From Octopus vulgaris (lineage: Eukaryota): a stretch of 64,000 bases of DNA. The stretch is from the NCBI GenBank assembly GCA_951406725.2, contig OX597815.1, forward strand, positions 100,874,001-100,938,000, in the 5' to 3' direction. Shown piece by piece: positions 19,073 to 19,460 of this stretch. Every line of letters starts with the position of its first letter. Position 1 is the stretch's first letter. The translations under genes and the position numbers were made by a program. The notes under the pieces were generated by a model. The model searched no databases and was not told the DNA's origin. It was given only the letters and a program-made list of their open reading frames with translations.

Positions 19073-19460
19073 AAAATAATAGTTATCGCCATACTAATAT
19101 GGCATTCTTATAAAAATAAGAAAAAAGCTGTCCGCTTATTAGCTCCATGAGGCCATCGCCTTAAGTTAGCTATTTGATACACAAACTGTATCCATATAAC
19201 CTTCGAACAAGGGAGGTCAGTCGCTCCACACTACTTGACCGGCAGCTACAGACGCGTTTCGGGGTATTGCCCCTTTTCAATGCAGCGTAGCCAGCCAGTA
19301 GGTGTCGCTTCCGACAATCTCTGTTCGATGGTTTTATTTACCTAGTTTCGGTGGAATACATCCACTTGTTTTATAAGAATGCCATATTAGTATGGCGATA
19401 ACTATTATTTTCCGGGAACGCTGCCGCTGTTCTCTTTTAGAGAGACTTAGTTATTTTAAT
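19073..19460 (-). mobile_element. Small non-coding foldback element in a (TA)n array carrying a hammerhead (Penelope pLTR-like)
   Basis: Perfect 43-bp inverted repeat 19073-19115/19369-19411; TA arrays on both sides. Confidence 0.75.
19245..19286 (-). ncRNA. Type I hammerhead ribozyme, U3-A8 variant
   Basis: Minus strand GCTGCA-TTGAAAA-GGGG caata CCCC-GAAA-CGCG-TC-TGTAGC: 6-bp stem I, 4-bp stem II, palindromic stem III, GUC site. Confidence 0.8.

Follow-up and report, generated by a model that had tools for sequence, protein, structure and literature searches.

The window, by which we mean the whole 64-kb stretch of DNA that was analysed, consists of AT-rich animal-type DNA with many microsatellites and decayed transposons. 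At positions 19073-19464 a TA microsatellite array is interrupted by a short element made of two pieces in opposite orientation, whose features are given below. Unit positions refer to the 362-nt repeat unit described further on, and X4 and X6 are runs whose contigs were compared with the element.

18913..19072: left TA-rich microsatellite array, the target (TRF 18913-19073; period 2, 83.5 copies)
19073..19372, minus strand: forward 5'-truncated piece, unit positions 14-313, containing the entire hammerhead across the cut site (contigs X4 record 17, X6 records 18 and 21)
19073..19115, minus strand: 43-bp arm 1, adjoining (TA)n and forming the forward piece's 3' end
19194..19337, minus strand: long imperfect rod, tipped by the hammerhead (predicted fold, helix list)
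19245..19286, minus strand: type I hammerhead with a U3-A8 core (descriptor match; predicted cut after C19251)
19369..19411, plus strand: 43-bp arm 2, the start of the inverted second piece (unit 271-313)
19412..19464, plus strand: 53-nt tail at the right end only, unit 314-362 and the first 4 linker bases (X6 19073->19412 joint; 4 extra matching bases)
19465..19886: right TA microsatellite array, the target (TRF 19459-19886; period 2, 215 copies)

The two arms form a perfect inverted repeat (19073-19115/19369-19411; 43/43 identical, E 4e-17), and the pieces to which they belong overlap by four bases (19369-19372) that can be read on either of them. A preliminary description of this DNA had taken the inverted repeat for the ends of a ~390-bp foldback unit within (TA)n. 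The 43-bp repeat and the TA sequence on both sides were borne out, whereas the foldback did not hold as a family unit, since the family carries the 43-mer once per 362 nt, and the right arm is not terminal, being followed by 53 further element bases (19412-19464). No second copy of the element was found elsewhere within the 64-kb window, and a target-site duplication (more than 4 bp) is illegible within the TA arrays on both flanks. The predicted fold of the inner 253 nt of the copy, which contains the long rod, had a z of -5.2.

Other structured sequences were noted elsewhere in the window. Self-complementary stretches of 79-192 bp lie at 7770-7848, 15104-15290 and 32759-32897, and a 186-bp inverted pair (87% alike) at 33543-34035 surrounds a TTAGGG-like array (33748-33860), with related pieces at 50582-52102. 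A 377-codon stop-free frame without a Pfam match occupies 54230-55363 on the plus strand.

A type I hammerhead with a U3-A8 core

The minus strand of the element carries a complete type I hammerhead with a UUGAAAA core (19286-19245), as the preliminary description had proposed. Helix I (19286-19281/19250-19245) has 6 bp, two of them G-U, and is followed by the core at 19280-19274, which corresponds to the U3-A8 variant; helix II (19273-19261), of 4 bp with a 5-nt loop, is closed by G10.1-C11.1 and precedes a GAA; and helix III (19257-19252) is formed by the palindrome ACGCGU, next to C17 at 19251 in a GUC triplet. The hammerhead descriptor matched only once in the 64-kb window, and the strict descriptor gave no match in 60 Markov-simulated windows. 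Next to helix I there is a UAC/U internal loop, which together with loop 2 (CAAUA) may resemble the canonical loop-loop contact, and the palindromic helix III appears suited to dimers.

The preliminary description had expected canonical CUGANGA searches to miss such a motif. Rfam missed it, with nothing at gathering score over the whole window, and none of the 17 matches obtained at E<10 in the region 18900-19600 came from the hammerhead families. The Rfam miRNA and snoRNA matches in this region were rejected as TA-repeat noise, and no tRNA gene was found. Loci with the core pattern in metagenome contigs (six) and viral contigs (two) were attributed to chance, none of the eight continuing into helix III/helix I or resembling the unit beyond the pattern.

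The U3-A8 pair, called a tolerated swap in the preliminary description, is already published for natural hammerheads, where it was reported active in vitro (Perreault 2011, PMC3088659), and for Penelope-like elements. With the Penelope hammerheads, including those of Cercyon from Schistosoma mansoni (Cervera & de la Pena 2014, PMC4209133), the motif shares the U3-A8 core, the palindromic helix III and the predicted dimer requirement; about 1,300 U3-A8 motifs of Penelope type are reported there for S. mansoni, and one example listed has the identical UUGAAAA core. The likeness to the minimal hammerheads of Penelope elements that had been claimed is partial: it extends to the palindromic helix III and not to the helix sizes, which are those of a canonical type I motif (6 bp for helix I and 4 bp for helix II, with no base added after A9), whereas the S. 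mansoni minimal motifs have 4-5 bp, 7-8 bp and the extra base (PMC4209133). Moreover, the hammerheads of Cercyon type are described beside an RT gene, whereas this one lies in a self-closing 362-nt unit.

A 362-nt unit in public contigs

The family was characterized in public runs X4, X6, X12 and X3, four of the 24 runs listed, all of which consist of contigs with no genomic tandem array directly visible in them; the contigs compared were those at least 85% alike. One X4 contig (record 17) of 392 nt corresponds to 362 nt plus a 30-nt end overlap, with no other letters and no gaps, in the order 19351-19372, a 13-nt linker, 19460->19369, 19116-19372, and the linker again. In four of four runs (1, 1, 19 and 13 contigs), the loose ends found behind 19372 open on the identical linker, and those longer than 21 letters diverge (agreement 0.76-0.84). 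On the upstream side of 19372, the contigs with the best support lead in all four runs into the 13-nt linker and from there into the preceding unit's 3' end, and X6 record 18 links 19073 to 19412 on opposite strands, so that in the family the tail comes after the 43-mer. The family unit is a 362-nt head-to-tail monomer that holds the 43-mer once, its closure being drawn from one whole contig and short loose ends.

The unit has 41.7% GC and a longest stop-free stretch of 55 codons without an ORF, and thus no RT and GIY-YIG ORF. It is small (within 150-450 nt), non-coding and below 50% GC, with a type I hammerhead and multi-copy head-to-tail units, as described for metazoan non-LTR retrozymes. 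The earlier proposal of a non-autonomous retrozyme or Penelope-type ribozyme repeat within a TA array was supported.

The 362-nt unit is a very abundant repeat. The contigs fitting the 388 bases amounted to 1893 in X12 and 1457 in X3, and the summed word depth, which is not a copy number, was 1.7e4-1.2e6 per bin. Twenty of the 24 runs listed, from 12 studies and nine coded organism labels, contain 0.85-0.91 of 34 sampled words, a spread that is explicable by close relatives or by host DNA in microbial samples, and to which horizontal transfer may also have contributed. Some of the nine labels with 85-91% of the words belong to runs of only ~5 million contig letters. None of the runs listed is recorded as RNA, those marked 'RNA?' are guesses, and X6 was not counted as evidence of expression.

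The window copy and the X4 contig show no differences over 349 bases, and 834 of the 1893 X12 contigs are at least 99% alike, which indicates that the element is probably young, as had been suggested. The junction of the window copy itself is bridged by none of the contig pieces listed, contigs being unable to prove absence, and the top word share of 0.91 would be in keeping with the absence of the ~3 sampled words expected across a private junction. Two further X6 contigs, records 22 (1143 nt) and 24 (775 nt), contain among the matches listed the 3' end of the unit only (19380-19426 and 19381-19460, respectively), and are candidates for an autonomous partner or for other insertion sites.

Predicted fold and sequence variants

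For circular folding, the 362-nt unit was rebuilt from slices of the window and the linker. The predicted circle has -121.9 kcal/mol, a value reached by none of 100 shuffles (z -6.1), and the antisense circle likewise beats its shuffles (z -5.8). In the circular ensemble the pairs of helices I and II have probabilities of 0.94-1.0, opening of the hammerhead core costs 1.1 kcal/mol, and the tail is base-paired to the 5' part of the unit, yielding by prediction a stable circle with the ribozyme free, as in retrozymes. When the inter-unit helix III was forced in a tandem dimer, it cost 8.4 kcal/mol with respect to the free fold.

The variants of the family, taken as the 16 substitution sites listed at a frequency of at least 5%, keep this fold at 16 of 16 sites (11 unpaired and 5 wobble/Watson-Crick swaps) where ~10 were expected (P 1e-4 to 3e-4 against null models matched by base and CpG), the sites not being independent events. 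Restriction to the sites common to both large runs gave 12 of 12 (P 4e-4), and thinning of clusters 9 of 9 (P 0.007). The antisense circle was compatible with 12 of the 16 variants (P 0.03) and the foldback as inserted with 14; one of the two indels listed (19294, ~6% in X3) falls within a helix. The 42-nt ribozyme contains none of the 16 variant sites where 1.9 were expected, which is not significant alone (P 0.13). Of the better conservation of core and stems that had been set as a test, the fold as a whole gave a clear result, whereas the core taken alone gave no significant one.

Penelope-like signature and origin of the insertion

On the family unit, the forward piece corresponds to positions 14-313 (minus strand, 19372->19073, 300 nt) and the inverted piece to positions 271-366 (plus strand, 19369->19464, 96 nt). 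The 43 bases that both pieces share account for the 43-bp inverted repeat, and together they represent 353 of the 362 nt. The predicted cut site (unit 135) is intact inside the copy, whose ends are located at the linker (unit 14 and 366) and not at this site. The foldback ends look like a scar of this single insertion. Two more opposite-strand joints, 19120/19271 and 19122/19163, were detected in three contigs, their orientation not being given; one side of each lies at most 7 bases from the boundary of this copy, in a U-rich stretch, and the other side varies. Within the family, insertion into TA was seen for the window copy and for one X6 contig, which passes from 19209 into a TA run; this contig and the two joints agree with a Penelope-like mode of insertion.

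This anatomy is similar to that of Penelope-like insertions, for which Craig et al. 2021 (PMC8557442) describe copies truncated at the 5' end that lie next to a second, inverted and truncated copy and have a 30-40-bp tail on one side, and link the (TA)n bias to the CX2-5CxxC linker of Neptune elements. The inverted copy and one-sided tail of the Neptune type are both present here, with a tail of 53 nt that is longer than described. With Neptune and Naiad insertions and derivatives such as MRC1 (PMC8557442), the copy shares the 5' truncation, the flanking inverted repeats from an adjacent inverted truncated copy, the tail at one end, the (TA)n target and the head-to-tail non-autonomous units, and differs from them in the absence of an ORF, the 53-nt tail and the lack of a sequence link found to an autonomous family; Naiads are described in that paper as lacking canonical hammerheads.

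A decayed Penelope-like element was located in the same window (~57270-60120, minus strand), with an RT N-terminal frame, a CX4CxxC linker and an end at a TA run. Its GIY-YIG match (21.7 bits) is just below the Pfam cut-off of 22.6, and at least 120 relatives were listed with 37-60% identity, many of them with RT and GIY-YIG domains; the named relatives of its RT are mostly from bivalve molluscs or from assemblies of their symbionts, and a second RT search named no animal. The repeat landscape may point to a cephalopod-like host. Close to the 3' end of the element (57329) there is a degenerate U3-A8 hammerhead-like motif, which is only suggestive because the descriptor was loosened after the motif had been seen, also matches 55202, and gives 0.15 matches per simulated window. 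The best match between the 362-nt unit and this element is 23 nt on the opposite strand (E 0.004), at the chance level for AT-rich sequence, and as the two have no real sequence in common the element is only a candidate for the class of the helper. Adjoining the 3' end of the Penelope-like element, two tandem ~469-bp units (56339-57265) were found, bordered by TA runs and containing a palindrome (56336-56548, which matches its own inverse).

Metazoan non-LTR retrozymes (PMC7229834; bioRxiv 10.64898/2026.07.22.740005) have in common with this family a small non-coding head-to-tail unit with less than 50% GC, a single type I hammerhead whose helix III is short and palindromic, a predicted circle that is stable and leaves the ribozyme free, and dispersed solo monomers, the 362 nt of the unit falling within the 350-390 nt of mussel retrozyme units (Cervera & de la Pena 2020, PMC7229834). 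The family differs in its U3-A8 core, without mention in the main text of PMC7229834, and in having an inverted second piece and a tail on one side only, within a TA array, an insertion structure that appears neither in that main text nor in the text of the 2026 preprint. Expression and cleavage are known for metazoan retrozymes, whereas the present unit is known from its sequence and predicted fold. Li, Clavereau & Pollet 2026 (bioRxiv 10.64898/2026.07.22.740005) argue that retrozymes derive from Penelope terminal repeats, and report cleavage for one of the nine Xenopus retrozyme dimers tested. A review (PMC6765202) and a curation guide (PMC8969392) repeat the known points on U3-A8, retrozymes and Penelope origin, and the passage on this subject in a giant squid paper is limited to a count of 235 Rfam hammerhead_1 matches. 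In the texts searched on hammerheads, retrozymes, octopus/cephalopods and Penelope, no description of this 362-nt family was found, nor of a retrozyme whose core is U3-A8 or whose ends show the inverted piece and tail; such variants may be listed in the supplements of PMC7229834 and of the 2026 preprint or in Lunse et al. 2017 (dimeric Penelope hammerheads). Each of the three ingredients (retrozyme, U3-A8 hammerhead, Penelope inversion) has been published, and their combination was not found in the texts searched.

We consider it probable that the stretch is a non-LTR retrozyme insertion in a TA array, likely copied by a Neptune-type Penelope-like element. The observed part of this reading comprises the unit with its closure and abundance, the anatomy of the copy in two pieces, and the fold-keeping variants. 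By analogy with the retrozymes of mussel, coral and axolotl, the family would be expressed, its RNA would be cleaved and circularized, and a helper would copy it. In a multimeric transcript, two hammerheads would pair as a dimer through the palindromic helix III and cut after the GUC, and the cut monomer would be circularized, a step shown in vitro with RtcB for the retrozymes of mussel and axolotl. A Penelope-like RT/GIY-YIG protein would then nick (TA)n and reverse-transcribe the RNA, and resolution would leave a 5'-truncated forward piece and an inverted 3' piece with a one-sided tail, generating the 43-bp inverted repeat. As the copy spans the cut site intact, its template, if the copy was made through RNA, would be a circle or an uncut multimer or monomer, and not a cut linear monomer.

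An unlikely but better-surviving alternative is that a long autonomous Penelope-like element left the stretch as its truncated 3' end (pseudo-LTR), without an independent small unit. Penelope-like insertions have this anatomy and are mostly 5'-truncated, their terminal repeats are known to carry U3-A8, and the decayed element of the window has its degenerate motif near the 3' end (57329); X6 record 22 also shares 19380-19426 with a different sequence before it. However, the contigs upstream of 19372 lead into the linker and the previous unit in four of four runs, X4 record 17 is a 362-nt cycle, the helix sizes are canonical rather than of the minimal type, and in the predicted circle the tail is paired to the 5' part of the unit itself.

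Slightly less probable still is a ribozyme that does not cut in vivo, with linear uncut transcripts of about one unit being retrotransposed, or with array growth at the DNA level, and with no circle. Growth of arrays at the DNA level leaves the inversion and the tail unexplained, the intact core has a compensated U3-A8 pair, for which activity in vitro was reported (PMC3088659), and the variants keep the fold better on the hammerhead strand than on the other strand (16 versus 12 of 16). On the other hand, the ends of the copy at the linker (unit 14 and 366) rather than at the cut site (unit 135) speak for this reading, as do the lack of significance of core conservation taken alone (P 0.13) and the behaviour of minimal-type dimers, which are reported to cleave weakly, eight of nine Xenopus dimers showing no cleavage. 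A foldback or MITE-type DNA transposon with the 43-bp inverted repeats as fixed family ends and a passenger hammerhead would account for the perfect repeat and the TA flanks, and its as-inserted fold is compatible with 14 of 16 variants, but it is largely refuted and highly improbable, as terminal inverted repeats are not common to the family members, the right arm is not terminal, family contigs carry the 43-mer once and pass from it into a same-strand tail, other inversion joints occur at different positions, and this junction is spanned by none of the contigs listed, a negative that contigs cannot make conclusive.

Returning to the retrozyme inserted with the help of a Penelope-like element, a more specific version, which we put forward tentatively and regard as doubtful, is that solo insertions record one lap of a Penelope RT round the circle (353 of 362 nt, ending 9 nt before its start), in a high-copy U3-A8 retrozyme hidden from CUGANGA and Rfam searches. 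The near one-unit length of this single copy would be natural if the RT had circled once and stalled at its own start, and is also explained by an uncut linear transcript with its ends at the linker.

Penelope-like elements have been proposed as the likely mobilisers of animal retrozymes from co-occurrence and sequence kinship. As each ingredient of the present family was already known, the gain lies in a testable system and not in a new kind of element: with a young, abundant retrozyme that has the Penelope-specific inverted piece and tail, the mobiliser idea becomes testable by counting insertion ends in one genome. Such a retrozyme would also show that a compensated U3-A8 core is able to sustain a large family overlooked by standard scans, and its insertions, if the one-lap reading is true, would constitute a direct genomic footprint of Penelope-like elements mobilising retrozyme circles.
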